Assembly: GCA_949484645.1 (NCBI GenBank)
Contig: CASYOT010000002.1
Span: forward strand, 2,912 to 66,911
DNA length: 64,000 nucleotides
Origin: an uncultured Lachnospiraceae bacterium
Lineage (GTDB): Bacteria > Bacillota > Clostridia > Lachnospirales > Lachnospiraceae
Direction of reading: 5' to 3'
Each line of letters starts with the position of its first letter. The first letter of the stretch is position 1. A program made the position numbers and the translations under genes. A model generated the notes under the pieces. The model saw only the letters and a list, made by a program, of their open reading frames with translations, had not been told where the DNA came from and did no database searches. Below, piece by piece: positions 29,464 to 62,248 of the stretch.

Positions 29464-30469
29464 AAGCCTTAAAAATGAAAGGACAATACTGCGGGACGTT
29501 GTCCCGGTGGACACGCCTTTTTTATTAGGCATATTTTTAGGCGATATATGTAATTTTAAATGTAAATACTGCATTCAGTCTGCAGATGAATCCGTTGAGG
29601 AGAAAAAACAGTTAGTAAGGAAATTTTTAGAGTGGGAAACATTTCTTAAAATTGCAGATTCTGCAAAACAATTTCCGAAGAAAATTAAAACGGTATTGCT
29701 GACAAGCATCGGGGAGCCTTTACTGCATCCGGAAATTGTAAAGATGTTAGAGTATATGAACCGGATTGGGCTGGCGGATAACTATGAAATCATTACAAAT
29801 GCATCTATGCTTTCTGTAGATTTGGGAAGACAATTAGTGGATGCAGGGCTTACAAGATTATGCGTTTCGCTTCAGGGGCTGACGGCGGAAAAATATAAAG
29901 ACGTCTGCGGTGTAGAGATAGACTATGATGCATTTTACCAAAATTTAAAGAGTTTTTACGAATACAGCAGGGGAAAGTGCAGCGTACATATTAAGACAGT
30001 GGATCTTTCGTTAGAGGACGGTGAAGAAGACGCATTTCTAAAACTCTATGGTCCGGTATGCGACACGATTTACATTGATAAAGTCGCTCCGGTGTTTAAA
30101 GGCGTAGATTATAGCGGCATTGTGCTTGACGGGGAGCCTTATACAGAAGATAAATACAGGCAAAATGCGGCTGTGTGCTGTAGTTCTATTTTTTATACAT
30201 TGTATACGCTTGCGGACGGACGGATCGCTCCTTGTTGTGACCATCCGCAGCCGGTTATTTATGGGGACATTAACCAGACTGGGCTTGTGGAAGCATGGTC
30301 TTCTGAAAATAGAAAACGGTTTTTAAGACAGCATTTGACCCATAAAAGATGCGAAAACGGCATTTGCGCACAGTGCGCCGCGCCGCTTGTAAGAGAGTTT
30401 GACAGTGATAAGTTAGATGGCTGTGAGGAAGCAATCTTGGCCCGTTTAGAGGGGGGTATTTTTCATTAA
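29444..30469 (+). CDS. radical SAM enzyme with SPASM/twitch-like C-terminal Cys cluster (paralog of 16981..17994)
   Basis: CNFKCKYC motif; C-terminal CCSSIF...CCDHPQ...C...C cysteines; start set to ATG 29444 after GAAAGGAG (track TTG 29423). Confidence 0.75.
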   Translation: MAEVTTRSLKNERTILRDVVPVDTPFLLGIFLGDICNFKCKYCIQSADESVEEKKQLVRKFLEWETFLKIADSAKQFPKKIKTVLLTSIGEPLLHPEIVKMLEYMNRIGLADNYEIITNASMLSVDLGRQLVDAGLTRLCVSLQGLTAEKYKDVCGVEIDYDAFYQNLKSFYEYSRGKCSVHIKTVDLSLEDGEEDAFLKLYGPVCDTIYIDKVAPVFKGVDYSGIVLDGEPYTEDKYRQNAAVCCSSIFYTLYTLADGRIAPCCDHPQPVIYGDINQTGLVEAWSSENRKRFLRQHLTHKRCENGICAQCAAPLVREFDSDKLDGCEEAILARLEGGIFH

Positions 30470-33288: not shown

Positions 33289-34151
33289 AAGAGTTGACAA
33301 AGGAGATTATCCAATATATCGGCGCGGTCAAAAAGGAGTATGAAAAGAGGTATCATATCCAGATTTTAATGTGGACAGTGAGAAAATCATTTCTGAGGGG
33401 CTTGGAACGAAAGACAAGTGATTTGGACGTTGTGTTTGTGTTCCAAAATTTAGATTCAAAGAAGAAAAAAATTATCTTTGAGCGCGCAGACCGCAGAATT
33501 GAGCTGCAATGCTGGGACATACAGGATATATTGGAAATCATTGCTGAGAATAAAAGGCGATCTTTACAGGAAAAGAAGTTTTTCCCATACTATAAAAGCA
33601 ATGAGTTGAAACATTATATTTTGGATTATTACCATGGCTTTTATGCCGGCTGGGATTCTGCGCTGATGAAAGATGAGTATGGATTTTGCCAAAATTGCGG
33701 GAAACATATCTTTCATCTTTATGAACCGTTTGTTGTGGCAAATATGTTGTATTTGGATTTAAAAGGGCAGTGTAAACGCGTCGAAATGGGGTATTGGTTG
33801 TCTTTAAATGAATACATTAATGCTATCTGGTCAGGGTTAGCGGGGCTTCATGCGCTTTCAAATGGCAGGCCTTCCGATACGCAGATACGGTTTTTGGCGG
33901 AAACGTATCTGAACGGGGAGGAGGCCAAAATGCTACTAAGCTATGTTGCGCATTTTAAACAGACAGTCCAAAAGCAGAGTAATTACTGCAATATGGAAGC
34001 GTTAAACCAAATGCTTTTGGATCTTAAGCTTAGGCTGGAGAAAAAAATGAAACAGTTTAACATACAAGAGATTGACATAGAAAAAGAACTTTTGGATATC
34101 CAAGGTCAATTAAAGGAAATGAGGAATGTTTATGAAAATTCAAGTTGCTGA
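33285..34151 (+). CDS. putative nucleotidyltransferase-fold (Pol-beta-like) protein
   Basis: RGLERKTSDLDVVFVF resembles the GS-x(n)-DxD minimal nucleotidyltransferase motif; ATGA overlap with the upstream stop; otherwise unrecognised. Confidence 0.35.
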   Translation: MKELTKEIIQYIGAVKKEYEKRYHIQILMWTVRKSFLRGLERKTSDLDVVFVFQNLDSKKKKIIFERADRRIELQCWDIQDILEIIAENKRRSLQEKKFFPYYKSNELKHYILDYYHGFYAGWDSALMKDEYGFCQNCGKHIFHLYEPFVVANMLYLDLKGQCKRVEMGYWLSLNEYINAIWSGLAGLHALSNGRPSDTQIRFLAETYLNGEEAKMLLSYVAHFKQTVQKQSNYCNMEALNQMLLDLKLRLEKKMKQFNIQEIDIEKELLDIQGQLKEMRNVYENSSC

Positions 34152-35937
34152 TTATGTTGCGCAGTTTTTAATGGAAAAAGGAATTACGGATCTTTTTTCA
34201 GTAGTAGGCGGCGGCTCGATGTTTCTAAATGATGCGTTTGGGAGGGCAAAAGGCATACGCTGTATTTATAACCATCATGAGCAGGCCTGCGCCATGGCGG
34301 CAGAAGCTTATTTTAAGTATAAAAACCAAATGGCGGCTGTCTGCGTGACGTCAGGGCCGGGCGGGACAAATGCTCTGACAGGGGTTCTTGGCGCATGGCA
34401 GGATAGCATCCCGTTATTTATTATTTCCGGACAGGTTCGTTATGAGACAACGGTAGACAGTGCAGGACTTCCTTTGCGGCAGTTTGGGGGACAGGAGCAC
34501 CAAATTGTGGATACTGTCAAAAATATAACGAAGTATGCGGCAATGGTGAAAAAAGCGGAAGACGTCAGATGGCATTTGGAAAAAGCGTATGATATGGCAA
34601 TGGATGGAAGACGGGGTCCGGTTTGGCTGGATATTCCATTAAATGTGCAGAGCGCTGAAATTGAAACGGAATCGTTAAAAGGGTTTCAGAAACCTGAGAA
34701 AGACAGAGAAAAGGTTAGAGGGTATGCAGACTCTATTTTGGAGGAAGTAAAGAAGGCGGAACGGCCGTTAATCATAGCTGGTTCCGCAGTACGGTCTTCA
34801 GGCGCGCAAGACGTTTTTCTCAGGCTGTTGGAACGGCTGCATATTCCGGTGACATATCCTCTGGTCGTGTCTGATTTGGTAAGCAATGAGAATCGTCAGG
34901 CGGTAGGCTGTTTTGGAGGGGCAGGGACGAGAGCCGGAAATTTTGCAGTCCAAAATGCGGATCTACTGCTTGTGTTTGGATGCAGAATGGCATTTTCCCA
35001 TATTGGGTTTAATTATGAAAAATTTTCTCCGGCTTCCAGAAAGATTGTAGTAGACATAGATGAGGCGGAACAGTCAAAACCCACGATGAAACGCGATATA
35101 AAAATATTGGCAGACGTACGGGATATACTTGAAGAAATGGAAAAGCGTGATTTATGCGGTATGCCTTCCTATCCAAAATGGAATGCGTATTGTCAGGAAT
35201 TAAAGAAAAGATTTCCGATCTATCAAAAGCATCATGAAACAAGCGAAGATGGAAGGGTCAATCCTTATTTTATGGCAAAAGCATTGTCGGATCGTATGGA
35301 TGAACATGGCATTATCGCGCTTGGCAATAGTTCGGGATTAGATCCAAAACTTCAGTATGGCATAGAGAAACAAGGGGAACGGGTTATTTTAAATTGTAAC
35401 TGCGGTTCTATGGGATACTGCCTTCCGGCAGGCATTGGCGCCGCGGCGGCTTCGGGCAGACGGGTGGTTGTATATACAGGGGACGGATGTATGCAGATGA
35501 ATATACAGGAGCTTTTAACCATTTCTCACAATAAACTTCCGGTAAAAATCATTGTGCTGAATAATAAAGGATATGGCGGAGTGGTCGCTACGCAGACTAA
35601 TTTTTTCGATGGGCATCTGTGCGGCTGTACGGAGGAATCCGGCATCAGTATGCCGGACTTTGAAAAGCTTGCGTATGCGTATGGATTTCAATATGTCAGG
35701 GCCGAGAACCATGAGCAGGTAGAAAAGGCTTTGGATGCATTATTATGTGATGACGCCCCGGCAATATGTGAGGTGTATCAAGATATGATTCAGGGGATTG
35801 AACCTAGGGTTTCAAGCAGGAAGTTAGAAGATGGGACATTGGTTTCAACCGGAATTGATGACTTAGCCCCATTCCTTCCTTTAGAAGAATATGAAGCCTG
35901 CCAATATGAGAATTGGGTGAAAGGCGGAAAAGAATGA
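34132..35937 (+). CDS. ThDP-dependent acetolactate-synthase-like enzyme (second YerE-like paralog)
   Basis: Aligns with the 18021..19805 protein (DLFSVVGGGSMFLNDAF, HHEQACAMAAEAY, VCVTSGPGGTNALTG, GRRGPVWLDIP, C-terminal ThDP motif YTGDGCMQMNIQEL); start at ATG 34132 after GAGGA. Confidence 0.75.
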   Translation: MKIQVADYVAQFLMEKGITDLFSVVGGGSMFLNDAFGRAKGIRCIYNHHEQACAMAAEAYFKYKNQMAAVCVTSGPGGTNALTGVLGAWQDSIPLFIISGQVRYETTVDSAGLPLRQFGGQEHQIVDTVKNITKYAAMVKKAEDVRWHLEKAYDMAMDGRRGPVWLDIPLNVQSAEIETESLKGFQKPEKDREKVRGYADSILEEVKKAERPLIIAGSAVRSSGAQDVFLRLLERLHIPVTYPLVVSDLVSNENRQAVGCFGGAGTRAGNFAVQNADLLLVFGCRMAFSHIGFNYEKFSPASRKIVVDIDEAEQSKPTMKRDIKILADVRDILEEMEKRDLCGMPSYPKWNAYCQELKKRFPIYQKHHETSEDGRVNPYFMAKALSDRMDEHGIIALGNSSGLDPKLQYGIEKQGERVILNCNCGSMGYCLPAGIGAAAASGRRVVVYTGDGCMQMNIQELLTISHNKLPVKIIVLNNKGYGGVVATQTNFFDGHLCGCTEESGISMPDFEKLAYAYGFQYVRAENHEQVEKALDALLCDDAPAICEVYQDMIQGIEPRVSSRKLEDGTLVSTGIDDLAPFLPLEEYEACQYENWVKGGKE

Positions 35938-36845
35938 AACTTTGTTTAGGGACTGTCCAACAGGGATTGGAATATGGGATTAATAATAAGTATGGAAAGC
36001 CTTCAAAAGAGTATAGCCAAAAAATCTTTTACGAAGCGGTAAAGCATGGGATTACAATGTTTGATACGGCAAGGGCATATGGAGATGCAGAATTGCTTTT
36101 GGGGGAATATTTAAAAGAACATGGGAATCGAAATGAAATCAAGATCATATCAAAACTCCGTCCGAACATACTAGAAGGTTGTAAGGATATATACGATACG
36201 ATATGCCGGGAATGTGAAGGCACTTTAAAGCGGATAGGCGTAGAATCCTTAGACGGATATTTGCTCCATACGCCGGAGTACATCCGAGATCCCAAAGTCG
36301 TTTCGGCTCTTTTAAAATTAAAGGAGGAGGGATATGCTTCGCATATAGGCGTATCCATTTACAATATAGAAGACGGGGACGTTGCAATCAATACGGGGGC
36401 AGTTGACTATATACAGCTTCCTTTTAGCATATTTGACCAGCGCGGAAAAAACAGCGGATTTCTCCGGCGGGCAAAAGAAGCCAAAATTACGGTATTTGCA
36501 AGAAGCATATTTTTGCAGGGATTGTATTTTATGGATGCGGGCAGTCTGCCGGAAAAAGTGAAACGGGCAGAGCCTATGCTGCGGAACTGGGAGCTGATTT
36601 TAGAGGAGCGTCACGCCAATCGGGAAGAAGTCTTAATTGAATTTGTGAAACAGTCCAAAGAGATTGATTATCTTGTGTTTGGAGTAGACACAGTGGAACA
36701 GTTACAAAGAGATATTTCTGTATTCGAAAGCGAAAGTAAATTAGATGAAACTATTTGGAACATAATCGGAGAAAAATTTTCCGATGTGGAGGAAAGCATT
36801 ATAATACCAAGTTTATGGGCGAAACAAGAAAGGAAGGGAAAATGA
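35934..36845 (+). CDS. aldo/keto reductase family oxidoreductase
   Basis: MKLCLGTVQQG...FDTARAYGDAELLLGEYL and IGVSIYN AKR signatures; ATGA overlap with the upstream stop. Confidence 0.75.
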   Translation: MKLCLGTVQQGLEYGINNKYGKPSKEYSQKIFYEAVKHGITMFDTARAYGDAELLLGEYLKEHGNRNEIKIISKLRPNILEGCKDIYDTICRECEGTLKRIGVESLDGYLLHTPEYIRDPKVVSALLKLKEEGYASHIGVSIYNIEDGDVAINTGAVDYIQLPFSIFDQRGKNSGFLRRAKEAKITVFARSIFLQGLYFMDAGSLPEKVKRAEPMLRNWELILEERHANREEVLIEFVKQSKEIDYLVFGVDTVEQLQRDISVFESESKLDETIWNIIGEKFSDVEESIIIPSLWAKQERKGK

Positions 36846-37544
36846 TGGGAGCAAAAAACATTTTTTTAACGACAGAAGGGGACGCATGGTATAGGAGAAA
36901 CCGTGAAAAGTTAGAAGAAGAAAGTGGATTTTCGGCGGTGGATTTAATGATTGATTTTCTAAATAGACAAAAAAAATCTCTGGGGGGGGGTAAATGGCTT
37001 TTCGTGGGATAAGCTGAATATTTTGGAAATCGGGTGTAGTTATGGATATAATCTGGCAAAGTTTTGCGAATCATTTTCTTGTCAATGTTATGGAATTGAA
37101 CCGTCAAAAGAAGCGGTAGAAGATGGAAATAGAAGATATAAGGATCTGCCAATTCAATTAACTCAGGGAACAGGGGATCTTTTGCCGTATGAGGCGGAAT
37201 CTATGGATGTGGTTATAATGGGATTTTGCATGTTGTGGATGGAGCGGAAAGACATATTGCAGGCATACGCGCAAGCAGACAGAGTTTTGAAAACAAATGG
37301 GATTATGATGGTTTATGATTTTGATGCGAAAATGCCATATCTTAGGGATAATATCCATAATAGAGAAGTGTTTACATATAAAATGGATTATGCGCAGCCG
37401 TTCATGGCTTTTCCAAACTATTATTTAATGGATAAGACCGTATTTTGCCATATGGGAAATTTTTTTGACAAAAGAATACAGGAAAGAATATCTTTGCAGA
37501 TTTTATATAAAGAGTCTTTGGAGGATGCGTATAGGAAAGGATAA
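36842..37544 (+). pseudogene. SAM-dependent methyltransferase, frameshifted at an A8-G9 homopolymer (candidate phase-OFF copy)
   Basis: Two consecutive ORFs (36842..37006 and 37023..37544) together align to the intact paralog 37571..38266 (about 85% nt identity); the reading frame breaks at the G9 tract 36982..36990; an 8-G version restores ...SLGGVNGFSWDKLNILEIGCSYGY.... Confidence 0.7.
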
Positions 37545-37570: not shown

Positions 37571-38266
37571 GTGGAGGCAAAGGAGATATTCTTAACGACA
37601 GAAGGGGACGCATGGTATAGAAGAAATCGTGAAAAACTGGAAGAAACAAAAAATTTTATTGCGGCAGAGATAATCATAGAATTTTTAAACAGACAAAAGA
37701 GCGGTATGGGAATGAATGGCTTTGCATGGGAGCGTTTTAAGATTTTAGAAGTCGGATGCAGTTATGGTTATCATTTGGCAAAGTTTTGTGAAGCGTTTCC
37801 CTGCCAGTGCTATGGAATTGAGCCGTCAAAAGAAGCGGTGGAAGACGGCAGTCATAAATATAAAGGCCTGCCTATGCAGTTAGTTCAGGGGACAGGTGAT
37901 TCTCTGCCATATGAAGCGGAATCTATGGATATTGTCATTATGGGGTTTTGTATGTTTTGGATGGATAGAAATCATCTGCTGCAGGCGTATGCGGAAGCGG
38001 ACAGGGTCTTAAAACCAAAGGGATTGCTTATAATTTATGATTTTGACACGAAGCTTCCCTATGTCAGAGACAATGCGCACAGTAAAGATGTGGATACATT
38101 TAAAATGGATTATGCAAAAGCGTTGACGGCTCTGCCGCATTATTACTTAATGGATAAAACGGTGTTTTGCCATAAAGGAAATTATTTTGATGAAGATATA
38201 CAGGAAAGGATTTCCATGCAGATTCTTTATAAGGAGGATTTCAAAGATGCATATATCAGAGGGTGA
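37571..38266 (+). CDS. class I SAM-dependent methyltransferase (intact tandem paralog)
   Basis: ILEVGCSYGYHLAKF motif I and VIMGFCMFWMD; 231 aa; GTG start at 37571 as in the track, with no in-frame ATG before it. Confidence 0.65.
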   Translation: MEAKEIFLTTEGDAWYRRNREKLEETKNFIAAEIIIEFLNRQKSGMGMNGFAWERFKILEVGCSYGYHLAKFCEAFPCQCYGIEPSKEAVEDGSHKYKGLPMQLVQGTGDSLPYEAESMDIVIMGFCMFWMDRNHLLQAYAEADRVLKPKGLLIIYDFDTKLPYVRDNAHSKDVDTFKMDYAKALTALPHYYLMDKTVFCHKGNYFDEDIQERISMQILYKEDFKDAYIRG

Positions 38267-39038
38267 ACGGCCGGATGTTTTGATTATGATACAGGCGAGG
38301 ACGGGGTCTTCTAGGCTGGCGAATAAAGTTCTGCATAAAATAAAAGGAATCACGGTATTGGAACATGTGATTAACCGGATGCAAAAGTGTGAAAATGCGG
38401 ACGAAGTGATTGTTGCGACAACTGTTGAACAAAATGATTTAGAGATTGTAAAAATTTGCGCAGAAAAAGGCGTGCGGGTTTATTGCGGTTCAGAACAGGA
38501 TGTGCTTGACAGGTATTATCAGGCGGCGCGTTTATTTGGACGAGACGGGGAAAAACATATTGTAAGAATTACGGCGGATTGCCCTATGCACGATTTTAGG
38601 ATTGTAGACAGAGTAATTAAAGAGCATTTTGCCCATCATGCAGATTATACCTCTAATGCTGAGAGTGAGACATTCCCAGATGGGTTAGATGTGGAAGTCT
38701 TTCGGTTTGAGGCATTAGAACAGGCATGGCGGGAAGCTAAATTGGCATCGGATCGTGAGCATGTGACGCAATATATCAGAAGATGTGAAACAATGACGAA
38801 ATATTCCGTAGAAAGCGCGGTTAATTACAGAGAGGAACGCTGGACGCTTGATGAGCCGGAAGACGAAGCGTTTATAAAAGAAATTTTTGACAGGTTATAT
38901 GAGAAAGACCCATTCTTTGGAATGGAGCAGGTATTGGAGACGGAACGAAAAGAGCCGGAATTAAAGAAAATAAATGCCGCTTTAATTCGAAATGAAGGGT
39001 TATTGAAATCATTAGACCGGGATTATATTGTGAAATAA
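38247..39038 (+). CDS. SpsF/CMP-sugar cytidylyltransferase family (CTP_transf_3), putative CMP-pseudaminic acid synthetase
   Basis: IMIQARTGSSRLANKVL motif typical of SpsF/KdsB-type cytidylyltransferases; start at MHISEG with AAGGAGGA RBS; upstream of pseI/G/C/H. Confidence 0.6.
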   Translation: MHISEGERPDVLIMIQARTGSSRLANKVLHKIKGITVLEHVINRMQKCENADEVIVATTVEQNDLEIVKICAEKGVRVYCGSEQDVLDRYYQAARLFGRDGEKHIVRITADCPMHDFRIVDRVIKEHFAHHADYTSNAESETFPDGLDVEVFRFEALEQAWREAKLASDREHVTQYIRRCETMTKYSVESAVNYREERWTLDEPEDEAFIKEIFDRLYEKDPFFGMEQVLETERKEPELKKINAALIRNEGLLKSLDRDYIVK

Positions 39039-39051
39039 GGAGGGGTAAAGT

Positions 39052-40362
39052 ATGGGAAAATCCCAAAAACTTTATCAAAGGGCGAAATCAATGATTCCGG
39101 GCGGGACGCAGTTATTGAGCAAGCGCCCTGAAATGTTTTTGCCGGAATACTGGCCGGCATATTATAAGAAGGCAAAAGGATGCTATGTATGGGATCTGGA
39201 TGACCGTAAATATATGGATGCAAGTTATATGGGAATAGGCGCGAATGTCCTTGGATATGCAGATGAGGATATAGATCTTGCCGTTAAATGGGCCATTTCT
39301 AACGGGAGTATGTGTACATTAAATGCGCCGGAAGAAGTGGCTTTGGCGGAAAAAATTATAGAATTACATCCGTGGGCAACGCAGGTCAGATATGCAAAAA
39401 CAGGCGGTGAAGCATTGGCGGTTGCAGTCCGCATTGCGCGGGCATATGCAAAAAAGGACATGATTCTATTTTGTGGGTACCATGGCTGGAGTGATTGGTA
39501 TCTGGCTGCAAATTTAAGTGAGGATTCGGCGCTGGACGGTCATTTGATTCAGGGATTAGAGCCGGCGGGCGTACCGCGGGGATTGGCGCAGACAGCGTTT
39601 CCATTCCGTTATAATGACATAAACAATTTTTTAGAGCTTATTGAAGCATACAAAGGGAGGATTGCGGCAGTCGTTTTAGAGCCGATTCGGAATATTTATC
39701 CGAAAAATGATTTCTTGCAGACTGTCCGGGAAGTGACGAAAAGAGAGGATATTGTCTTGATAGCGGACGAGGTGTCTGCCGGATTCCGTTTGAATTGCGG
39801 AGGGGCGCATCTTACATTAGGATTTGAACCGGATATGGCAGTGTTGGCGAAGGCGTTAGGCAACGGGTATCCGATGTCTGTTATTTTTGGGAAAGCCGGA
39901 TATATGGAATCTGCGCAGAGCACATTTATCAGCAGCACTTACTGGACGGAACGGACGGGACTTTGCGCGGCGCTGGCCGTTATCAAAAAATACCAAACAG
40001 AGCATGTAGAAAAACATCTTGACAGAATAGGGAAGATGGTTTTAGGGGGCTGGAAAGATGCGGCCAACCAATATGGGGTAAAGATAAAGCTTTCCGGCAT
40101 ACCGCCGCTGGCCCACTTTGAATTTGAATTGGACAGCCCGCTTGCATACAATACTTACTTTACGCAAGAAATGTTGAAAAAAGGATTTTTGGCAACGAAT
40201 GCGTTTTATGCGTCGTATGCGCATAAGGAAACGGATATTTTGGAATATTTGAATGCGGCAAACCAAGTGTTTCGGCAAATATCGGAAATTACAGCATCGT
40301 CAGATATTATGCGGCATTTAGACGGCCCATTGCGCCAGACCGGATTTCAAAGGCTTACCTGA
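39052..40362 (+). CDS. class III (glutamate-1-semialdehyde aminomutase-like) PLP aminotransferase
   Basis: N-terminus SQKLYQRAKSMIPGGTQLLSKRP... and internal ...EPI...NDFLQ..REV...IVLIADEV..GFR resemble HemL-family enzymes; AAGGAGGGG RBS. Confidence 0.7.
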   Translation: MGKSQKLYQRAKSMIPGGTQLLSKRPEMFLPEYWPAYYKKAKGCYVWDLDDRKYMDASYMGIGANVLGYADEDIDLAVKWAISNGSMCTLNAPEEVALAEKIIELHPWATQVRYAKTGGEALAVAVRIARAYAKKDMILFCGYHGWSDWYLAANLSEDSALDGHLIQGLEPAGVPRGLAQTAFPFRYNDINNFLELIEAYKGRIAAVVLEPIRNIYPKNDFLQTVREVTKREDIVLIADEVSAGFRLNCGGAHLTLGFEPDMAVLAKALGNGYPMSVIFGKAGYMESAQSTFISSTYWTERTGLCAALAVIKKYQTEHVEKHLDRIGKMVLGGWKDAANQYGVKIKLSGIPPLAHFEFELDSPLAYNTYFTQEMLKKGFLATNAFYASYAHKETDILEYLNAANQVFRQISEITASSDIMRHLDGPLRQTGFQRLT

Positions 40363-40386: not shown

Positions 40387-41427
40387 ATGGAAATGAAAAT
40401 GTATCAGCTTATGAAAGAGCGCGCCTATGTAATTGCGGAAATGTCGGCAAATCATGCGGGCTCGAAAGAAACCGCGGTAAAACTAATTCATGCAGCGAAA
40501 ATGGCGGGAGCGGACTGTGTGAAAATACAGACTTACACGGCGGATACGATGACGTTAGATTGTGATAACGCATATTTTCATATTGGAGATGGGACATGGA
40601 AAGGCGATACACTGTATTCTTTGTATGAAAAAGCGTATATGCCATGGGAATGGCAGGCGGAATTAAAGGAGGTCACAGAGACATTAGGCATGGATTTTTT
40701 GTCCACTCCATTTGATAAGACGTCGGTGGATTTTTTGGAAAGCCTTGACGTGGCGGCGTATAAGATTGCATCGTTTGAGCTGACAGATCTTCCGCTGATT
40801 CAGTATGTGGCATCGAAAGGAAAACCGGTGATTCTGTCGACGGGCATGGCGGAGTTGTATGAAATAGACGAAGCTGTAAAAACAATCCAGAGGGAACATA
40901 ATTCTCAAATTATTTTAATGCACTGCGCAAGCGCGTATCCGGCGATTACAGAGGATATGAATTTGTATACAATGCAAAATCTAAAAGAGGTTTATCAAGT
41001 TCCGGTCGGGCTGTCCGATCATTCCATGGGTTCTGTCGGAGCCATTACAGCGGTGGCGTTAGGCGCGCAAATTATTGAAAAACATTTTTGCCTTGACCGG
41101 GCCATTGAAACGCCGGATTCCTCATTTTCCATGAACCCTGCTGAGTTTCGGCAGATGGTATGTGACATACGGCAGGCGGAAAAAGCGTTAGGATCGGTCC
41201 GGTATGGGGTGAAAAGCCAAGAAAATCCAAATCTTGGCTTTAGGAGGTCTATTTTTGTCACCCAAGACATTAAAAAGGGGCAGAAGCTGACAGAAGAAAA
41301 TATCCGGGTGATTCGGCCGGGATATGGGGCGCCGCCTAAATTTTATGGGGAAGCCTTGGGACAGACGGCTTTAAGTGACCTGAAAAGAGGCACACCTCTT
41401 AAGATTTCGGATATAGGAAGTGTGTAA
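40387..41427 (+). CDS. pseI: nonulosonic acid synthase, NeuB family (pseudaminic acid synthase candidate)
   Basis: YVIAEMSANHAGSKETAVKLIHAAKMAGADCVKIQTY NeuB N-terminal TIM-barrel signature and C-terminal SAF domain (IFVTQDIKKGQKLTEENIRVIRPG); syntenic with pseG/C/H. Confidence 0.8.
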   Translation: MEMKMYQLMKERAYVIAEMSANHAGSKETAVKLIHAAKMAGADCVKIQTYTADTMTLDCDNAYFHIGDGTWKGDTLYSLYEKAYMPWEWQAELKEVTETLGMDFLSTPFDKTSVDFLESLDVAAYKIASFELTDLPLIQYVASKGKPVILSTGMAELYEIDEAVKTIQREHNSQIILMHCASAYPAITEDMNLYTMQNLKEVYQVPVGLSDHSMGSVGAITAVALGAQIIEKHFCLDRAIETPDSSFSMNPAEFRQMVCDIRQAEKALGSVRYGVKSQENPNLGFRRSIFVTQDIKKGQKLTEENIRVIRPGYGAPPKFYGEALGQTALSDLKRGTPLKISDIGSV

Positions 41428-41442: not shown

Positions 41443-42447
41443 ATGAAAAAAAGAGTGTATATCCGGGCGGACATGAACCCTCAAATAGCGACCGGCCATA
41501 TCAGGCGCTGCCTTGCAATTTCAGACGCGGTCAGGGAACTTGGGGGAGAGGCGGTTTTTTTGACGGCGGATTTTAATGCAAAACGGCTGTTAGAAGAACA
41601 TGGGCTAAGATATTATGTTTTAAACAGCAGATGGGATAGGATGCAAGATGAATTAGAGACATTGTATCAGATAATCCAGAAAGAAAATATAGATACATTA
41701 TTAATTGACAGTTATCAGGTTACAAAAAAGTATTTGGAAAATCTTAAGAAAGCTGTTAAAATTGTATTGCTGGATGATTTATTTTTGTTTGATTATCCGG
41801 CAGACGAAATCATATGTTACGCAAATTACTGCCATCAGTTTCCCTATGATAAAAAAAGATATGAAAACTTATATTTGGGCATGGACTATACACCCCTGCG
41901 GCGTGTGTTTTGGAAGCCCGAAAAGAAGGAAATCCGAAAAGAAATCAGGCGGGTTTTGGTCTGTTCCGGTGGCAGTGATATGTTTGGGGCGATAGAAACG
42001 ATAGTGGGGAAATTAAAAGATCGGTATGAGTGTATCGATGCAGTTTGCGGATTGTATTCTGATTCGTATGAAAAGCTGTTGGAAACTTATGGAGGATATA
42101 AAAATATCCGAATCGTAAAAGACGTAAAAGATATTGAAACTTATATGCTTCAGGCAGATGTGGCAATTTCTGCGGGCGGGACTGCGTTGTATGAATTATG
42201 CGCAGTTGGCGCGCCGGCCATTTCTTATGCAATAGCGGACAACCAGCTTAAAAATGTTATGCAGTTTGAAAAAGACGGTCTCATTTCATATGCCGGGGAC
42301 ATACGGCGGGAAGATATTAGTGAAAACGTTTTAACTTATTTAGAGAAATATGAGAGCCAAACGACGCGCAGCGAATTGTCACGGAAAATGCAAAGCGCTG
42401 TTGATGGAAAGGGCGCGGTTAGGATTGCAAAGGCTCTCATGGAATAG
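41443..42447 (+). CDS. pseG: UDP-2,4-diacetamido-2,4,6-trideoxy-beta-L-altropyranose hydrolase (PseG, GT-B/MurG-like)
   Basis: RADMNPQIATGHIRRCLAISDAV matches the PseG N-terminal signature (R.D.s..iG.GH..R.L.La); 334 aa. Confidence 0.75.
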   Translation: MKKRVYIRADMNPQIATGHIRRCLAISDAVRELGGEAVFLTADFNAKRLLEEHGLRYYVLNSRWDRMQDELETLYQIIQKENIDTLLIDSYQVTKKYLENLKKAVKIVLLDDLFLFDYPADEIICYANYCHQFPYDKKRYENLYLGMDYTPLRRVFWKPEKKEIRKEIRRVLVCSGGSDMFGAIETIVGKLKDRYECIDAVCGLYSDSYEKLLETYGGYKNIRIVKDVKDIETYMLQADVAISAGGTALYELCAVGAPAISYAIADNQLKNVMQFEKDGLISYAGDIRREDISENVLTYLEKYESQTTRSELSRKMQSAVDGKGAVRIAKALME

Positions 42448-42453: not shown

Positions 42454-43584
42454 GTGATGAAAATGTATATTCCATATGGAAAGCAGTTTATAGATGAAGA
42501 AGATATAGCGGCAGTGGTTGAGACGCTGAAAAGCGATTGCATTACGACAGGCCCTAGGATAGCGGAGTTTGAGCAGGCTGTGTGTGAGTATACAGGGGCG
42601 AAATACGCGGTGGCGGTTTCGAGTGGAACGGCGGCTCTGCATATTGCCTGTCTGGCGGCAGGCATAGGAAAAGATGACGAAGCAGTTACGTCTCCGATGA
42701 CATTTGCGGCATCTGCAAATTGTGTGTTGTATTGTGGGGGAAGGCCTGTTTTTGCGGACATTAAACCAGATACCTATAACTTAGATCCGAATGACGTTAG
42801 AAGGAAAATAACGAATAAGACGAAAGCGGTCATTGCGGTAGATTATACAGGGCAGCCGTGTGAGTTGGAAGAATTAAAACAAATTGCAAAAGAACGTCAG
42901 TTGTATTTGATTGAAGATGCGGCTCATGCCATAGGGGCGGAATACAAGGGCAGGCGGGTAGGCTCAATTTCTGATATGACGACATTCAGTCTGCATCCGG
43001 TTAAACATATTACGAGCGGAGAGGGCGGCATTGTAACGACAAATAATAAGGAACTCTATAAAAAATTGATTTTATTCCGGAATCATGGTATAACAAGAGA
43101 GAGAGAAGCTATGACGAAAATGGAAGGCGGCTGGTATTACGAACAGTTAGATTTGGGGTATAATTACCGGATTACTGATTTTCAGTGCGCGCTTGCCGCA
43201 TCACAGCTTAAAAAATTAGATCGGTTTATACAAAAAAGGACGGAACTTGCCGGACGCTATGAGTATGCGTTTCAAGATATGGAAGATGTCGTTTGCCCGT
43301 ATCAAAAAGAAGGATGCAAAAACAGTTGGCATTTATATGTGATACAGGTGAAAAACAGGGCAGAGACATTCCGGAAAATGAGAGAAGCCGGGATTGGCGT
43401 AAATGTGCACTATATTCCGGTTTATAAGCATCCGTATTATCAGAGCCTTGGATATGGAAATGTAGAATGTAAAAATGCAGAATCGCTATATCAGCATATT
43501 ATCAGTTTGCCTCTCTATTATATGCTTACATATGAACAGCAGGATTATGTGATTGGGCAGTTAAAGAAAATTTTAATGGGATAA
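42454..43584 (+). CDS. pseC: DegT/DnrJ/EryC1-family PLP aminotransferase (PseC-like UDP-4-keto-6-deoxy sugar aminotransferase)
   Basis: IPYGKQFIDEEDIAAVVETLKSDCITTGPRIAEFEQAV...AVSSGTAALHIA typical of PseC/DegT; 376 aa. Confidence 0.8.
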   Translation: MMKMYIPYGKQFIDEEDIAAVVETLKSDCITTGPRIAEFEQAVCEYTGAKYAVAVSSGTAALHIACLAAGIGKDDEAVTSPMTFAASANCVLYCGGRPVFADIKPDTYNLDPNDVRRKITNKTKAVIAVDYTGQPCELEELKQIAKERQLYLIEDAAHAIGAEYKGRRVGSISDMTTFSLHPVKHITSGEGGIVTTNNKELYKKLILFRNHGITREREAMTKMEGGWYYEQLDLGYNYRITDFQCALAASQLKKLDRFIQKRTELAGRYEYAFQDMEDVVCPYQKEGCKNSWHLYVIQVKNRAETFRKMREAGIGVNVHYIPVYKHPYYQSLGYGNVECKNAESLYQHIISLPLYYMLTYEQQDYVIGQLKKILMG

Positions 43585-43594: not shown

Positions 43595-44047
43595 ATGGAA
43601 GGTTATTTGAAAGCGGCGGAAGAATCAGATATGGATATTTTGTTTGAATGGGCGAATGACCCCATTGTCCGCCAAAATTCTTTCCATTCAGAAAGAATAC
43701 TTTATGAGGATCATAAGAAATGGTTTTATGGCATATTAGAGGGCAGTGGATGCAGGCAATATATTTATATTTGTAATAATGAAAAAATCGGACAGGCGCG
43801 TATTACAGTAAACGGATTTGAAGCAGAAATTTCGTATAGCATATGTCCGCAAAAAAGAAATCAGGGGCATGGGGCAAAGTTATTACAGTTAATCTATCGG
43901 CAAGTGAAAGAGGAGTTTCCTCAGATTCGGAAATTGATAGGAAAAGTCAAACCAGAAAATATTGCGTCTGCCAAAGCGTTTCTTCACGCAGGTTATGGGG
44001 AGCAGTATTCTGTTTATGAAAGGCAGATGGAGTTACAGGCAGAGTAA
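43595..44047 (+). CDS. pseH: GNAT-family N-acetyltransferase (PseH-like)
   Basis: 150 aa; ILFEWANDPIVRQNSF N-terminus and GNAT core (RNQGHGAKLL); position directly after pseC. Confidence 0.65.
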   Translation: MEGYLKAAEESDMDILFEWANDPIVRQNSFHSERILYEDHKKWFYGILEGSGCRQYIYICNNEKIGQARITVNGFEAEISYSICPQKRNQGHGAKLLQLIYRQVKEEFPQIRKLIGKVKPENIASAKAFLHAGYGEQYSVYERQMELQAE

Positions 44048-44128: not shown

Positions 44129-44908
44129 ATGAAAGTGATTATTTTGGCAGGCGGGCTGCCAAGCACATTAATTGAAGAAGATGAAAAAATGCCGAAACCT
44201 ATGGCGGAAATTGGCGGAAGGCCGATGCTTTGGCACATTATGAAACAATATTCGTATTATGGCTACAATGAATTTATTATTTGCACCGGTTATAAGGGTG
44301 ACGTGATCAAAGAGTATTTTATGAATTTTTATATCTATCAATCGGACATCACGGTGGATTTACAGACGAATGCCGTTAAACTGCATAGAAAACAAACGGA
44401 AGATTGGAAAGTGTCTATTATAGATACGGGATTGTCTTCTTCTATTATTGACCGCTTGTATATGATACGGGACTATATTGAGCAGGAAGCCGCTCTGGTT
44501 TCTTATGGAGACTGCCTTTCAGATATCAACATTGCGAAAATGGCAGAAGAACATAAAAGACACAAAAAAGCCGCGACATTTGCCGCCGCGCATCCAACTG
44601 GGAGAAATGAGATTCTGCCGATGAATGACATTGGGGAATATCACAGTTTACAGCAAAGCGGGATAAAGGAAGATGCGTGGGTAAACGCCTGCAATATGAT
44701 TTTAGAGCCACAGGCGTTTGATTCTATAGGAAACAGCATAAAACAGTCTATGCCCCTGCCCTTGATTGACTGTCTGGCGACTCAAGGGGGGATACATATG
44801 TACCGCCATAGTGGTTTTTGGTCTCCGGTTGAGACGGTAAGGGATAAAACTTGGCTGGAAGGTTTGTGGGCTCAGGGACAAGCACCGTGGAAGGTTTGGG
44901 AAGACTAG
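44129..44908 (+). CDS. glucose-1-phosphate cytidylyltransferase-like protein with degenerate nucleotide-binding loop
   Basis: Aligns with the RfbF-like protein at 46012 (MKVIILAGG...KPMAEIGGRPMLWHIMKQYSYYG..EFIICTGYKG..IKEYF.N.Y) but the G-loop reads GGLPSTL instead of GGKGTRI. Confidence 0.6.
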   Translation: MKVIILAGGLPSTLIEEDEKMPKPMAEIGGRPMLWHIMKQYSYYGYNEFIICTGYKGDVIKEYFMNFYIYQSDITVDLQTNAVKLHRKQTEDWKVSIIDTGLSSSIIDRLYMIRDYIEQEAALVSYGDCLSDINIAKMAEEHKRHKKAATFAAAHPTGRNEILPMNDIGEYHSLQQSGIKEDAWVNACNMILEPQAFDSIGNSIKQSMPLPLIDCLATQGGIHMYRHSGFWSPVETVRDKTWLEGLWAQGQAPWKVWED

Positions 44909-44953: not shown

Positions 44954-46015
44954 TTGAGTATATTGGATTTTTACCGGGATAAAACTGTTTTAGTCACGGG
45001 CCATACCGGATTTAAAGGAAGCTGGCTGTGCGTGATGCTTCAAATGGCAGGCGCAAATGTAGTAGGTTATGCGTTAAAGCCGGAAAGGGAATCACTGTAT
45101 GCGTTATCAAAAGCGGGCAGGCAGATGGAGTCCGTTGAAGGAGATGTCCGTGATTTAAACCATTTAAAGTCTGTATTCCGGCAATATCAGCCGGAGCTGG
45201 TATTTCATTTAGCGGCTCAGCCTATTGTACGGACAAGTTATGAAGATCCTGTCTTTACCTATGAAACAAACGTAATGGGAACGGTCAATCTGTTAGAGAG
45301 CGTAAGAACAGTTTCAAGCGTTGCCGCAATTTTAAATGTCACAACCGATAAAGTTTATGAAAACAGGGAATGGGAGTGGGGCTACCGTGAAACAGATCCG
45401 TTAGACGGATATGATCCTTACTCAAACAGCAAATCCTGTTCGGAATTGGTAACGCACAGCTACAAGAAATCTTTTTTCGATTCCATGGGAACCGCAGTTT
45501 CTACGGCAAGGGCAGGAAATGTCATTGGCGGCGGGGATTTTGCAAAAGACCGGATTATTCCGGACTGCATACGGGCGGCAATGGAAGGGAAAGAAATTGT
45601 AATCCGCAACCCATACTCGATACGGCCGTTCCAGCATGTGTTAGAGCCGCTTGGCGCCTATTTAATGATTATGCAACAGCAGGCGCGTTTTCCGGAAAAA
45701 CAGGGATATTATAATGTGGGGCCAGAGGAAGGAGACTGCATTACGGTAGGCGCATTAGCGGATTTGTTTTGTGAAGAATGGAAAGACGGCGCTTCTTGGA
45801 AAAATATTTGTGACGAAGGCCCTCACGAAGCGGCCTATTTAAAACTGGACTGTTCTCACATAAAACATAACATCGGCTGGAAACCCCGCTGGAATATCCA
45901 AAAGGCAGTGGAAAAAACGGTGGAATGGACAAAGGCATACCAGTCGCATGGAGACGTCAGGGCGTGTATGGAACGCCAGATTCATGAATTTTACAAAGGA
46001 AGAACAACGATATGA
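44954..46015 (+). CDS. rfbG: CDP-glucose 4,6-dehydratase (RfbG/DdhB-like)
   Basis: FYRDKTVLVTGHTGFKGSWL signature of CDP-glucose 4,6-dehydratase; TTG start after AAAGGAGGG RBS; 353 aa. Confidence 0.8.
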   Translation: MSILDFYRDKTVLVTGHTGFKGSWLCVMLQMAGANVVGYALKPERESLYALSKAGRQMESVEGDVRDLNHLKSVFRQYQPELVFHLAAQPIVRTSYEDPVFTYETNVMGTVNLLESVRTVSSVAAILNVTTDKVYENREWEWGYRETDPLDGYDPYSNSKSCSELVTHSYKKSFFDSMGTAVSTARAGNVIGGGDFAKDRIIPDCIRAAMEGKEIVIRNPYSIRPFQHVLEPLGAYLMIMQQQARFPEKQGYYNVGPEEGDCITVGALADLFCEEWKDGASWKNICDEGPHEAAYLKLDCSHIKHNIGWKPRWNIQKAVEKTVEWTKAYQSHGDVRACMERQIHEFYKGRTTI

Positions 46016-46801: not shown

Positions 46802-48145
46802 ATGTTTGAACAGAAAACAGAAGCAGAGGCAAGGGAAGAAATTCTTACAATGGTGACAGAGTATTGCAAAACATTTCATATGACGAAAAAGGAATATCAG
46901 GAAGGAGACAGGATTTCGTATGCCTCCCGCGTATATGATGAAGCGGAAATGTGGAATCTTGCAGACAGCGCATTGGAATTTTGGCTGACTTCCGGCAGGT
47001 ATACCGAGCGGTTTGAAAAAGAATTCGCAGAGTATATCGGCGTATCTTACTGTTCTCTCGTTAATTCCGGCTCGTCCGCGAATCTGCTTGCGTTTATGGC
47101 TCTTACGTCTCCGTTATTAAAAGAAAGGCGCATATGCCGCGGCGATGAAATTATTACGGTGGCGGCAGGATTCCCGACGACGGTCACGCCCTATCTGCAA
47201 TATGGCGCAGTCCCTGTTTTTTTGGATTTAACGGTTCCGCAGTATAATATCGATACGGAACAATTAGAGCGGGCATTGTCAGATAAGACAAAGGCAGTGA
47301 TGATTGCGCATACACTTGGGAATCCATTTGATTTAAAAACGGTAAAAGAATTTTGTGAGAAACATACGCTATGGCTGATAGAGGACAACTGCGATGCGCT
47401 GGGAAGCGAATATTGTTTGGATGGAGTTTGGAAAAAAACAGGCAGTGTGGGGGATATAGGAACCAGCAGTTTTTACCCGCCGCATCATATGACGATGGGG
47501 GAAGGCGGGGCGGTTTATACTGACAACCCGCTTTTACATAAAATTATCCGTTCGATGCGCGATTGGGGGCGGGATTGTATGTGCCCGTCCGGTCAGGATA
47601 ATCTATGTGGGCATCGGTTTGATAAACAGTATGGCGAATTGCCATTAGGCTATGACCATAAATATGTATATTCCCATTTTGGCTATAATTTAAAAGCGAC
47701 TGATATGCAGGCGGCAATCGGCTGCGCCCAGCTTCAAAAACTGCCGGAATTTACGAAACAAAGGAGAGCAAATTTTAAGCGGTTAAAGGAGCGGTTATCG
47801 GATTTGCAGGATAAACTGATTTTGCCGGAAGCGTGTCCGGATTCAAACCCGTCATGGTTTGGTTTTTTAATTACCTGTAAAGAAGGCGTGGATAAAAATC
47901 AAATCGTTTCTTATTTAGAAGAACATGGCGTACAGACCAGAATGTTATTTTCCGGAAACTTAACGAAACAGCCTTGTTTTGATGAATTGCGTAAGTCAAA
48001 AGAGGGCTACCGGATTGTGGATACGCTGAAACAGACAGACATTATTATGGAAAGAAGTTTTTGGATTGGCGTATATCCCGGAATGACGGATAAGAAGATT
48101 GACGCTATGGCAAAACTGTTAAAGGAAGCGGTGGCGTCCATTTGA
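46802..48145 (+). CDS. rfbH: CDP-6-deoxy-D-xylo-4-hexulose-3-dehydrase (E1, RfbH/DdhC-like, PMP-dependent)
   Basis: 447 aa DegT-fold protein with the RfbH-type N-terminus (...YASRVYDEAEMWNLADSALEFWLTSGRY...EFAEYIGVSYCSLVNSGSSANLLAF). Confidence 0.8.
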   Translation: MFEQKTEAEAREEILTMVTEYCKTFHMTKKEYQEGDRISYASRVYDEAEMWNLADSALEFWLTSGRYTERFEKEFAEYIGVSYCSLVNSGSSANLLAFMALTSPLLKERRICRGDEIITVAAGFPTTVTPYLQYGAVPVFLDLTVPQYNIDTEQLERALSDKTKAVMIAHTLGNPFDLKTVKEFCEKHTLWLIEDNCDALGSEYCLDGVWKKTGSVGDIGTSSFYPPHHMTMGEGGAVYTDNPLLHKIIRSMRDWGRDCMCPSGQDNLCGHRFDKQYGELPLGYDHKYVYSHFGYNLKATDMQAAIGCAQLQKLPEFTKQRRANFKRLKERLSDLQDKLILPEACPDSNPSWFGFLITCKEGVDKNQIVSYLEEHGVQTRMLFSGNLTKQPCFDELRKSKEGYRIVDTLKQTDIIMERSFWIGVYPGMTDKKIDAMAKLLKEAVASI

Positions 48146-48185: not shown

Positions 48186-48845
48186 ATGAATGATATTATC
48201 CTAATCGGCTCTGGAGGCTGTATGCGGGAGCTGGTCTGGCAGATACAGCAGTTGAACGGGGAATGCCGTGTATGGAATATTTTAGGCTATGTTGACAAAG
48301 CCGATCGGTCCGGCGTTTCCGACATAAAAGTTTCCGGCCAGAGCATTCCCTATCTTGGCGGAGATGACTTCCTTTTACGCCGGACCGAACAGACGAATGC
48401 CGCTATATGTGTCGGGAATCCTTCCTTACGGAAAAAAATTGCCAAGAACATACAGAAAAACCCGCATATCTGTTTTCCTAATTTAATTTTAGGCAATGTA
48501 AAAATCTGCTCTGACGTACAAATCGGGAAAGGCTGTATTATCAGTATGGACGCCCGTATTTCTACGAATGTTGCATTGGGGGATTTTGTTTTTTTAAATA
48601 TGGGAAGCGGGATCTGCCATGACGGAAAAATTGGAAATTATGTCACATTAAGCCCAGATGTGCGTCTTGCCGGAAACGTAACCGTGGAAGAAGGCTGTGA
48701 CATTGGCATGGGAGCAAAGATTATACAGGGCAGGCATATCGGCGCAAATGCAGTGATCGGGGCAGGAAGCGTCGTCATCACTGACATAGCGGCTGGCTGC
48801 ATGGCGGCCGGCGCGCCGGCAAAGGAGAAGAAGAAAAAAATATGA
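48186..48845 (+). CDS. NeuD/PglD-family hexapeptide sugar N-acetyltransferase (LegH-like)
   Basis: N-terminal Rossmann-like ILIGSGGCMRELVWQI...LGYVDKAD followed by LbH repeats (GNYVTLSPDVRLAGNVTVEEGCDIGMGAKI). Confidence 0.75.
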   Translation: MNDIILIGSGGCMRELVWQIQQLNGECRVWNILGYVDKADRSGVSDIKVSGQSIPYLGGDDFLLRRTEQTNAAICVGNPSLRKKIAKNIQKNPHICFPNLILGNVKICSDVQIGKGCIISMDARISTNVALGDFVFLNMGSGICHDGKIGNYVTLSPDVRLAGNVTVEEGCDIGMGAKIIQGRHIGANAVIGAGSVVITDIAAGCMAAGAPAKEKKKKI

Positions 48846-51662: not shown

Positions 51663-51739
51663 GAGAATCGAGCGCGTATGCCGATATAAAAGGCAGAGAC
51701 CTATCAGGGAGGATATGGAACAAACATGGAGGTTGCCCT

Positions 51740-52813: not shown

Positions 52814-52839
52814 GCAGGAGGAAAAAGGAGGCATTTAAT

Positions 52840-53820: not shown

Positions 53821-53832
53821 GGGAGAAATGTT

Positions 53833-55872: not shown

Positions 55873-55974
55873 TGTGTTCGGGAAAGGGAAGTTTTTAAGT
55901 CGTTTTTATTGTATTTGACAGATGTTTTGGCATATGCTATTCTTGTCATAGAAAAACTGCATAAGAATCTTCAG

Positions 55975-56140: not shown

Positions 56141-56207
56141 GCGCTTCCTGTATGCCATTTGGCTTTAAAAGACGGCATATATAAGACGAGGGACATGGTT
56201 TGCATTG

Positions 56208-56245
56208 TGGGAGAACCGGCTCTGAAATAGATTGTTTCAGCGCCG
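56208..56245 (+). terminator. riboswitch expression-platform terminator
   Basis: Hairpin ccggctctgaaa-tagattg-tttcagcgccgg followed by T6, between the aptamer and ribD. Confidence 0.65.
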
Positions 56246-58078: not shown

Positions 58079-58089
58079 GAGGGAAAAAC

Positions 58090-62229: not shown

Positions 62230-62248
62230 TTAGAAAGGGTGTGAAACT

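Follow-up and report, generated by a model that had tools for sequence, protein, structure and literature searches.

A conserved unit of oxidoreductase, cytidylyltransferase and class-III aminotransferase in nonulosonic acid gene clusters, proposed as a C8-type tailoring module

A cytidylyltransferase and a class-III aminotransferase before pseI

The window analyzed here, a 64,000-nucleotide stretch of contig CASYOT010000002.1 from an uncultured Lachnospiraceae bacterium, carries the genes for pseudaminic acid (Pse), a nonulosonic acid (NulO). At positions 38247–40362 lie the genes for an SpsF-type cytidylyltransferase (CT) and for a class-III aminotransferase, termed AT3 in this work, that resembles glutamate-1-semialdehyde aminomutase (GSAM; HemL). 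Both assignments, as a cytidylyltransferase and as a class-III aminotransferase, had been made in an original prediction from the DNA letters and are confirmed by the Pfam matches in Table 1. Together with an aldo-keto reductase (AKR) encoded upstream, the two enzymes form a conserved three-enzyme unit within NulO clusters, and we propose that this unit is a C8-type NulO tailoring module in which an aminotransferase replaces a reductase.

The genes for CT, AT3, PseI, PseG, PseC and a GNAT N-acetyltransferase form a tight, co-directional operon, with gaps of 6–24 nucleotides between the pse genes. The earlier description of the pair as standing at the head of the pse block needs correcting, as pseB is found 12 kb upstream; the AKR gene, which encodes the functional partner, is also upstream, a short distance from the pair. 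AT3 is, as had been recognized, an additional and non-canonical enzyme, since the canonical PseC is present at 42454. Independent assemblies have the same genes with identical calls, the exact AT3 protein is found in 169 blocks of public assemblies, and identical proteins (MCI9426203–5) are carried by a metagenome-assembled genome (MAG) whose annotation record names it "Eubacterium sp."

The most plausible start of CT is the ATG at 38247, which has AAGGAGG ahead of it, lies within an open reading frame (ORF) spanning 38187–39038, and overlaps the end of the preceding methyltransferase gene by 20 nucleotides. In the Pfam scan CT scores 101 bits against PF02348. By score it is not PseF (20.2 bits on TIGR03584, cut-off 205.7), and its closest solved relative is the uncharacterized cytidylyltransferase 6oew (96 bits), with KdsB enzymes at 35 bits or below. 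The name SpsF is the one given by the Joint Genome Institute (JGI) to a protein identical to CT; SpsF of Bacillus subtilis has been placed by genetics at a CMP-activation and transfer step (PMC7439481). CT is predicted to be the dedicated CMP-transferase of the module.

The AT3 gene starts 13 bases past the CT gene, with GGAGGGG upstream of its ORF. AT3 belongs to the PF00202 class (148.7 bits, gathering score 30.5); the Schiff-base residue Lys267 and Asp239, which contacts pyridoxal 5′-phosphate (PLP), are unchanged among 17 orthologues and line up with the corresponding lysine and aspartate of GSAM. The best NCBIfam matches of AT3 are HemL models, every one far under its cut-off (score/cut-off: NF004856, 246.4/486; NF000818, 220.3/398; TIGR00713, 207.2/527.3; NF009055, 188.1/637). 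AT3 is 29.6% identical to Escherichia coli HemL and 48–68% identical (median 57%) to 101 cluster-embedded orthologues from unrelated phyla. The HemL substrate motif GGVNSPVR is absent from AT3 and the invariant GGTQLLSKRPEM stands in its place: at this N-terminal substrate-binding motif, E. coli HemL has IPGGVNSPVRAF, whereas the window protein and 16 of 16 aligned orthologues have IPGGTQLLSKRPEM. In an alignment to 2e7u, the motif substitution is accompanied by a two-residue insertion. AT3 thus shares with HemL the class-III fold and both catalytic residues, at about 25–30% identity and TM-scores of about 0.75–0.78, but differs in its family scores, in its N-terminal motif and in its glycan rather than tetrapyrrole context; domain and family scans found no tetrapyrrole genes within the 64-kb window. 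Judged by sequence, AT3 is not HemL, and the clustering with bona fide HemL that had been considered earlier was not found.

In terms of structure, the AlphaFold2 (AF2) model of AT3 (pLDDT 75.6) has as its top match the aminopentol aminotransferase FumI, and GSAM-like enzymes match about equally well at 21–28% identity. The nearest non-HemL solved relatives are FumI, GenB3/GenB4 and PctV, whose substrates are ketones, aldehydes or amines of a sugar-like or polyol nature, with carbonyls that are not those of α-keto acids, as would be the case here; FumI acts on a CH3-CH(NH2)- terminus, which resembles C9–C8 of the product proposed below. The GenB/NeoB- and FumI-type enzymes are, like AT3, GSAM-like, and the carbonyls that they aminate or deaminate belong to sugar-like or polyol scaffolds on which a dedicated dehydrogenase has already acted, but they are only 21–26% identical to AT3, belong to other pathways and have no link to a cytidylyltransferase. 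AT3 is predicted to be a NulO keto-group aminotransferase, with C8 as the favored position.

Recurrence of the three-enzyme unit

A protein search with AT3 gave at least 8000 matches. Identity and length were noted for the best 120, which are 60–99% identical to AT3 and nearly all exactly 436 residues long. In a scan of GTDB with one genome per species, AT3 relatives were found in at least 474 species of bacteria and archaea; the orthologues, 47–79% identical to AT3, are nearly always part of NulO clusters. The best 80 of these come from Firmicutes, Bacteroidota, Proteobacteria, Campylobacterota, Spirochaetota, Planctomycetota, Omnitrophota, lineages of the candidate phyla radiation (CPR) and four archaeal lineages (Woesearchaeota, Thaumarchaeota, Methanosarcinales and Bathyarchaeia), and a haloarchaeal megaplasmid also carries AT3. 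Cultured carriers include Blautia schinkii DSM 10518, Flintibacter muris DSM 110149, Pseudosulfitobacter pseudonitzschiae SMR1 and Legionella pneumophila Sg6/Sg12. The pair is therefore not a local insertion, as had first been supposed, but part of a module, complete with its AKR partner, that is conserved across phyla and domains.

Gene context was compared in 80 loci seeded with AT3, in which ORFs were called and labeled with the window's own proteins; 50 of these loci have full context. CT directly precedes AT3 in 55 of the 80, and a PseC-type aminotransferase is present in 44, the window included. Among the full-context loci, 44 of 50 have a NeuB-family synthase and 38 of 50 a PseB-type dehydratase. 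The recurrent gene order is pseB-pseC-[AKR-CT-AT3]-pseG-(GNAT)-pseI.

The position of the oxidoreductase is filled by either of two folds. AKR is present in 46 of the 80 loci and a protein of the Gfo/Idh/MocA family in 19, and no locus has both. The Gfo/Idh/MocA partner emerged from clustering of the unlabeled neighbors as a 334-residue family, identified through Pfam, in the slot directly upstream of CT. In 30 loci the AKR orthologue stands two genes upstream of AT3, and in 42 of the 46 AKR loci it is at most three genes away; in the window the AKR gene is 1.4 kb upstream of CT, with a methyltransferase duplication between them, and was called as 35934–36845 (303 residues) in an independent assembly. 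Three loci that seemed to have no oxidoreductase (L022, L032 and L041) carry an AKR::CT fusion of about 550 residues, confirmed by Pfam for L022. The use of two unrelated oxidoreductase folds in the same slot argues that a redox step is required.

A second set of 80 metagenome loci was seeded with CT, and 32 of these have at least 1.5 kb of flank on both sides. A class-III aminotransferase lies within three genes of CT in 28 of the 32, and in two of the remaining four (L124 and L166) a DegT aminotransferase adjoins CT instead. AKR (20 loci) and Gfo (8 loci) again alternate. The class-III aminotransferases of this set fall into two lineages, family A, to which the window's AT3 belongs, and family B. 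The two are about 31% identical, a distance as great as that of either from HemL, and family B members stand beside an SpsF-type CT and an AKR or Gfo protein in L107, L116, L120, L143, L146, L177, L181 and other loci. The occurrence of two unrelated class-III lineages in the same slot indicates that the slot needs an aminotransferase, whatever its ancestry.

CT and AT3 are also found as single polypeptides. On plasmid pSMR1-1 of Pseudosulfitobacter pseudonitzschiae, the PGAP annotation lists pseB, pseC, an aldo/keto reductase, a GNAT, a hypothetical protein, a 677-residue "class III aminotransferase", pseG and pseI. The first 242 residues of the 677-residue protein are 36% identical to the window's CT (E = 2e-45); this match makes it a natural CT::AT3 fusion. 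Another is P0181, and L178 holds one that involves family B. Six contigs of the viral collection IMG/VR (L171–L176, 22–26% GC) encode CT::AT3 fusions of 627–735 residues next to an AKR; in L175, the Pfam-confirmed fusion is at 6248–8290 on the plus strand and the AKR at 8287–9150 on the minus strand. Two of the six are labeled GVMAG, for giant-virus MAG. In these contigs pseB-, pseC-, pseG- and pseI-like genes are scattered over both strands, and a reverse transcriptase and a class II aminoacyl-tRNA synthetase are encoded close by. It is possible that giant viruses produce this modified nonulosonic acid as well.

A fusion of another kind, GNAT::AT3 (P0005, 656 residues, with an N-terminal RimJ/L-like GNAT), is found at L003:10001–11971 and L004:1998–3968. 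These loci are close relatives of the window's island (AT3 78% identical) in which the methyltransferase and CT genes have given way to a DDE transposase, and the fusion may be a product of rearrangement rather than a functional fusion. It was considered as a sign that the new amine is acylated, a weak one given the adjacent transposase and a GNAT unrelated to the cluster GNATs.

A proposed reaction and its alternatives

The CT of the unit is coupled, by adjacency or fusion, to an AKR or a Gfo/Idh/MocA oxidoreductase in a NulO cluster, a trait common to two characterized systems that epimerize C8 of a NulO, with an 8-keto intermediate proposed. In Acinetobacter baumannii prophages, EpaA, a fusion of CTP_transf_3 and AKR domains, and EpaB, a short-chain dehydrogenase/reductase (SDR), convert Pse5Ac7Ac to 8-epi-Pse5Ac7Ac, as seen by nuclear magnetic resonance of the capsule (PMC12053666). 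The present unit likewise couples a CTP_transf_3 CT to an AKR, would act on a Pse-type sugar from the canonical pse pathway and would need one further finishing enzyme. It differs in that the Epa finisher is an SDR reductase that gives the 8-epimer, whereas a class-III aminotransferase is found here, and in domain order, which is CT-AKR in EpaA and AKR-CT here when domain descriptions, not sequences, are compared. The only matches obtained for EpaA in the phage collection were to genuine kdsB on a host fragment.

The second system, ElaABC of the A. baumannii KL49 locus and the Vibrio vulnificus nab cluster, carries out the 8-epimerization of CMP-Leg5,7Ac2, a derivative of legionaminic acid (Leg), as concluded from genetics and structures; it consists of a CT, a Gfo/Idh/MocA protein proposed to oxidize the C8 hydroxyl and an SDR for reduction of the 8-ketone from its opposite face (PMC13656337). 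The likeness lies in the combination of a CT, a Gfo/Idh/MocA protein, which fills the AKR slot in the 19 loci described above, and a second enzyme working on a proposed 8-keto intermediate. The closest solved structure reported for ElaA, 3EZY (PMC13656337), is also the best solved relative of the Gfo partner; the second-best, 8w9s, described as an "NADH-dependent dihydrogenase" of 342 residues, is a possible ElaA. The differences are that ElaB is NeuA/PseF-like and not SpsF-type, that the substrate is Leg and not Pse, and that the second enzyme is an SDR and not an aminotransferase. An SDR of the Epa/Ela type is not present in the slot in the window, and a FabG-like SDR was found in only 15 loci, at scattered positions. 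Given the Epa/Ela chassis in common and an aminotransferase in the SDR slot, transamination of the ketone in place of its reduction is the simplest reading.

The chemistry has a counterpart in Shewanella, where KdnB and KdnA convert 3-deoxy-D-manno-octulosonic acid (Kdo) to 8-amino-8-deoxy-Kdo (Kdo8N) before CMP activation. There too an amine is made from a hydroxyl in the terminal region of a 2-keto-3-deoxy sugar acid by a dehydrogenase followed by a PLP aminotransferase, and the product is activated by a cytidylyltransferase of the KdsB/NeuA superfamily. Aminoglycoside pathways also have dehydrogenase-aminotransferase pairs that follow this logic. In contrast to the present unit, the Kdn enzymes are a metal-dependent alcohol dehydrogenase and an aminotransferase of another fold class, and the sugar has eight carbons, with a primary C8 alcohol/aldehyde in place of the secondary alcohol/methyl ketone expected here. 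The Kdo8N product is cited together with a sugar of the class proposed below, 8-amino-3,5,7,8,9-pentadeoxy-β-manno-nonulosonic acid from the O-antigen of Tenacibaculum (Flexibacter) maritimum (PMC3210612). No assignment of genes to the latter sugar was found in the literature searched.

The reading that we favor, tentatively and at a little less than an even chance, is that the module converts 8-keto-Pse to 8-amino-8-deoxy-Pse, which is CMP-activated. The canonical enzymes PseB, PseC, PseH, PseG and PseI would make Pse5Ac7Ac, and the oxidoreductase, AKR here and Gfo/Idh/MocA elsewhere, would turn a secondary hydroxyl, most likely that of C8, into a ketone. Onto this ketone AT3 would move the amino group of an amino acid donor through the PLP and pyridoxamine 5′-phosphate (PMP) forms of its cofactor, yielding an 8-amino-8-deoxy (5,7,8-triamino-3,5,7,8,9-pentadeoxy) nonulosonic acid. 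CMP activation by the SpsF-type CT would precede the oxidation or follow the amination, and a Maf-type transferase would place the sugar on flagellin. What the analysis shows is the identity of the genes, the conservation and the fusions of the module, and that AKR and Gfo/Idh/MocA exclude each other; we infer the substrate, the C8 position (as opposed to C4, or to C7 in clusters lacking pseC), the order of the steps and the amino donor. Of the options offered by the original prediction, amination of a different keto sugar comes closest to this scheme.

Several observations weigh against conversion of 8-keto-Pse. A NeuB synthase is missing within 10 kb in six of the 50 full-context loci, and about a dozen full loci have no recognizable AKR or Gfo nearby. 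A PseC-type DegT is lacking in L044, L046, L047, L052 and L083. Without this enzyme, L014 and L046 hold a PseB-like dehydratase, an RmlD-like reductase, AT3 and a GNAT, and L044 and L047 hold PseB, CT, AT3, NeuB and a DUF218 protein; in clusters without PseC, AT3 may be the only (late) aminotransferase and act at another position. AKRs usually run in the reductive direction. Both active-site loops have low confidence in the AF2 model, and with GSAM-like folds matching evenly the fold search does not reveal the substrate of AT3; neither sequence nor fold tells whether the enzyme is a transaminase, an aminomutase or an epimerase. A second CT of the window, NeuA/PseF-like, is encoded at 50964, so that the SpsF-type CT is not strictly needed for CMP-Pse; it may serve the modified sugar only, by analogy with the coexisting PsaF and EpaA in Acinetobacter. 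The searches gave no link between the module and the T. maritimum sugar: a protein search seeded from Bacteroidota gave Flavobacteriales, none of them named Tenacibaculum, the T. maritimum serotyping paper uses generic gene names only, and a literature search on the link gave nothing. The literature searched contained no function, biochemical or genetic, for any member of the AT3 family, and no functional assignment was found under triamino NulOs or under the combination of AKR, CT and class-III aminotransferase.

The loci lacking PseC are the natural starting point for a different view, in which AT3 serves as a further or alternative 4-aminotransferase for the UDP-4-keto-6-deoxy-hexose from PseB, to give a different stereochemistry at C4 (C7 of the NulO) or to replace PseC. 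The five loci named above have PseB, CT, AT3 and a NeuB synthase, and class-III enzymes such as AcbV can use nucleoside diphosphate (NDP)-4-keto sugars. We nevertheless consider this fairly unlikely: the PseC-type gene is present in more than half of the loci, AT3 adjoins or is fused with the late-acting CT rather than PseB, and the near-obligate extra oxidoreductase would be left without a role because PseB already supplies the ketone. Improbable also is a part for AT3 in making a side-chain or acyl-donor precursor, for instance an amino-acid-derived N-acyl group later put on Pse, as the original prediction had suggested. The island is rich in tailoring enzymes, with thiamine pyrophosphate (TPP) enzymes, radical S-adenosylmethionine (SAM) enzymes and methyltransferases, and the GNAT::AT3 fusion could be read in this sense. 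The idea fares poorly, however, against the conservation of AT3 across domains, far higher than that of the variable genes around it: AT3 remains 47–79% identical between clusters with very different tailoring genes, the TPP enzyme accompanies it in no more than 6 of the 80 loci, fusions in several lineages are to CT, and the GNAT fusion is the transposase-linked one described above.

The kinship of AT3 with GSA aminomutases, its nearest sequence relatives, and the inclusion of racemases and epimerases in class III (9wrf) would suit a HemL-style aminomutase or PLP epimerase acting on an amino-bearing sugar carbon, as in a 7-amino/8-keto swap or an epimerization of the C7 amine. An ordinary DegT transaminase takes the place of AT3 in L124 and L166, though, the HemL motif GGVNSPVR is replaced by GGTQLLSKRPEMF in AT3, and in the established Pse pathway the C5 and C7 amines are normally N-acylated before the NulO stage, all of which makes this alternative unlikely. 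We attach a similarly low probability to the notion that CT and AT3, with or without AKR, make a separate CMP-activated sugar acid that is unrelated to Pse and merely co-located with the pse genes. It would accommodate the six loci without NeuB, among which L001 has an HMGL-like aldolase and an ATP-grasp protein instead, as well as the canonical NeuA/PseF-type CT found besides the SpsF type in L013, L015 and L023 and the second CT of the window, but the module usually sits in the middle of a pseB-pseC ... pseG-pseI operon with no second synthase, and EpaA provides an example of a dedicated CT::AKR protein acting on Pse itself (PMC12053666). Of the earlier suggestion of yet another CMP-activated sugar, half survives: the evidence favors a CMP-activated derivative of the cluster's own Pse-type sugar over an unrelated sugar. 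Finally, a housekeeping HemL stranded in the island has a probability close to nil. The best family-level names are all HemL and JGI calls the orthologues GSA aminotransferase, yet AT3 is below every HemL cut-off, is no closer to E. coli HemL than is the unrelated family B, and has hundreds of orthologues in NulO clusters, including those on plasmids and viral contigs.

Pse and Leg decorate flagella, capsules and S-layers and affect motility, recognition by phages and antibodies, and immune sensing. The C8-tailoring modules EpaAB and ElaABC, which alter capsule type and virulence in Acinetobacter, were resolved only in 2025–2026. The module described here is possibly, though on balance doubtfully, the missing route to 8-amino-8-deoxy (5,7,8-triamino) nonulosonic acids. 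If so, sialic-acid-like sugars with three nitrogens, so far reported from one fish pathogen, would be products of hundreds of species of bacteria and archaea, including common human-gut Lachnospiraceae, on their flagella, and of giant-virus-like genomes. An aminotransferase module of this kind would add a positive charge to the sugar, or a new handle for acylation or methylation, would provide a gene marker for predicting such glycans from genomes, and would give a function to a very large and highly conserved family that now carries the annotation "glutamate-1-semialdehyde aminomutase" or "class III aminotransferase". Gut metagenomes commonly contain the exact AT3 protein, which thus bears on the decoration of Lachnospiraceae flagellins, which are major immune antigens.

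The surrounding glycosylation island

Between the AKR and CT genes lie an intact methyltransferase gene and a disrupted tandem copy, whose two pieces together span the length of the intact protein. The same split, into 56 and 173 residues, was called in an independent metagenome contig (L087), so that it looks like a genuine pseudogenized copy and not a sequencing error. The order AKR-methyltransferase-SpsF-AT3 recurs in L067 and L072, and in L029 the methyltransferase is two genes downstream of AT3. In Clostridium, a methyltransferase is found upstream of an sps-like pseF (PMC13317340). The neighboring methyltransferase may modify the module product further.

Table 1. Features of the window, with coordinates, strand and the matches on which each identification is based
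Feature	Position	Strand	Evidence
Maf/MptE-like putative flagellin NulO transferase	763–2685	+	
Three radical SAM/SPASM enzymes and one B12-binding radical SAM enzyme	7127–8188, 9986–11104, 12712–14352, 29423–30469	+	
Bifunctional PfkB kinase and cytidylyltransferase-like protein, HldE/RfaE-like architecture	11144–12673	+	
Two acetolactate-synthase (ALS)-like TPP enzymes	34126–35937, 18021–19805	+, −	Well below ALS cut-offs
PseB, inverting UDP-GlcNAc 4,6-dehydratase, first pathway step	25571–26572	+	TIGR03589 508 bits, cut-off 407.8
AKR, oxidoreductase partner of the module	35913–36845	+	PF00248 1.2e-32
Disrupted tandem methyltransferase copy	36842–37012 (56 residues) and 37023–37544 (173 residues)	+	69–71% identical to the methyltransferase at 37571
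Class I SAM methyltransferase	37571–38266	+	PF08241 1.2e-17
SpsF-type CT, CTP_transf_3, 263 residues	38247–39038	+	PF02348 8e-29
AT3, class-III PLP aminotransferase (family A), 436 residues	39052–40362	+	PF00202 2.5e-43
PseI, pseudaminic acid synthase	40387–41427	+	TIGR03586 470 bits, cut-off 340
PseG, UDP-sugar hydrolase	41443–42447	+	TIGR03590 170 bits, cut-off 153.6
PseC, DegT-type 4-aminotransferase of the canonical pathway	42454–43584	+	TIGR03588 495 bits, cut-off 423.5
PseH-like GNAT N-acetyltransferase	43595–44047	+	PF13302 1.4e-10; TIGR03585 38 bits, below cut-off 93
Glucose-1-phosphate cytidylyltransferase, CDP-glucose 4,6-dehydratase, 447-residue DegT-family protein	44129–44908, 44954–46015, 46802–48145	+	
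Legionaminic acid block, complete: NeuD-, LegI-, LegG-, PtmE-, LegB- and LegC-like genes	48186–55020		
Second, NeuA/PseF-like CT, within the legionaminic acid block	50964–51662	+	PseF model (TIGR03584) 191.6 bits, just under cut-off 205.7

The Maf/MptE-like protein near the start of the window marks the whole region as a flagellin glycosylation island, and with two candidate CMP-NulO synthetases the island probably makes at least two nonulosonic acids. The PfkB kinase/cytidylyltransferase-like protein points to the additional synthesis of a nucleotide-activated heptose or a sugar of that kind. The 447-residue DegT-family protein looks RfbH-like by its length and context, and the TPP enzymes and CDP-hexose genes resemble the YerE route to branched-chain 3,6-dideoxyhexoses (yersiniose-like). 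The TPP enzyme at 34126 was rejected as a member of the module for its rare co-occurrence with AT3; it is presumably YerE-like and a partner of the CDP-hexose genes. The tailoring gene set is unusually large for a flagellin glycosylation island, and several ORFs of 400–600 residues, at 5449, 20881, 26583, 28033 and 30528, are without a match in Pfam.

The island ends near 55.4 kb, and positions 55971–64000 hold housekeeping genes, including riboflavin RibD and a BioW-BioF fusion for biotin. The GC content is 0.47–0.50 in this stretch and about 0.40–0.45 in the island; this step, together with the housekeeping flank, is consistent with a chromosomal hypervariable glycosylation region.

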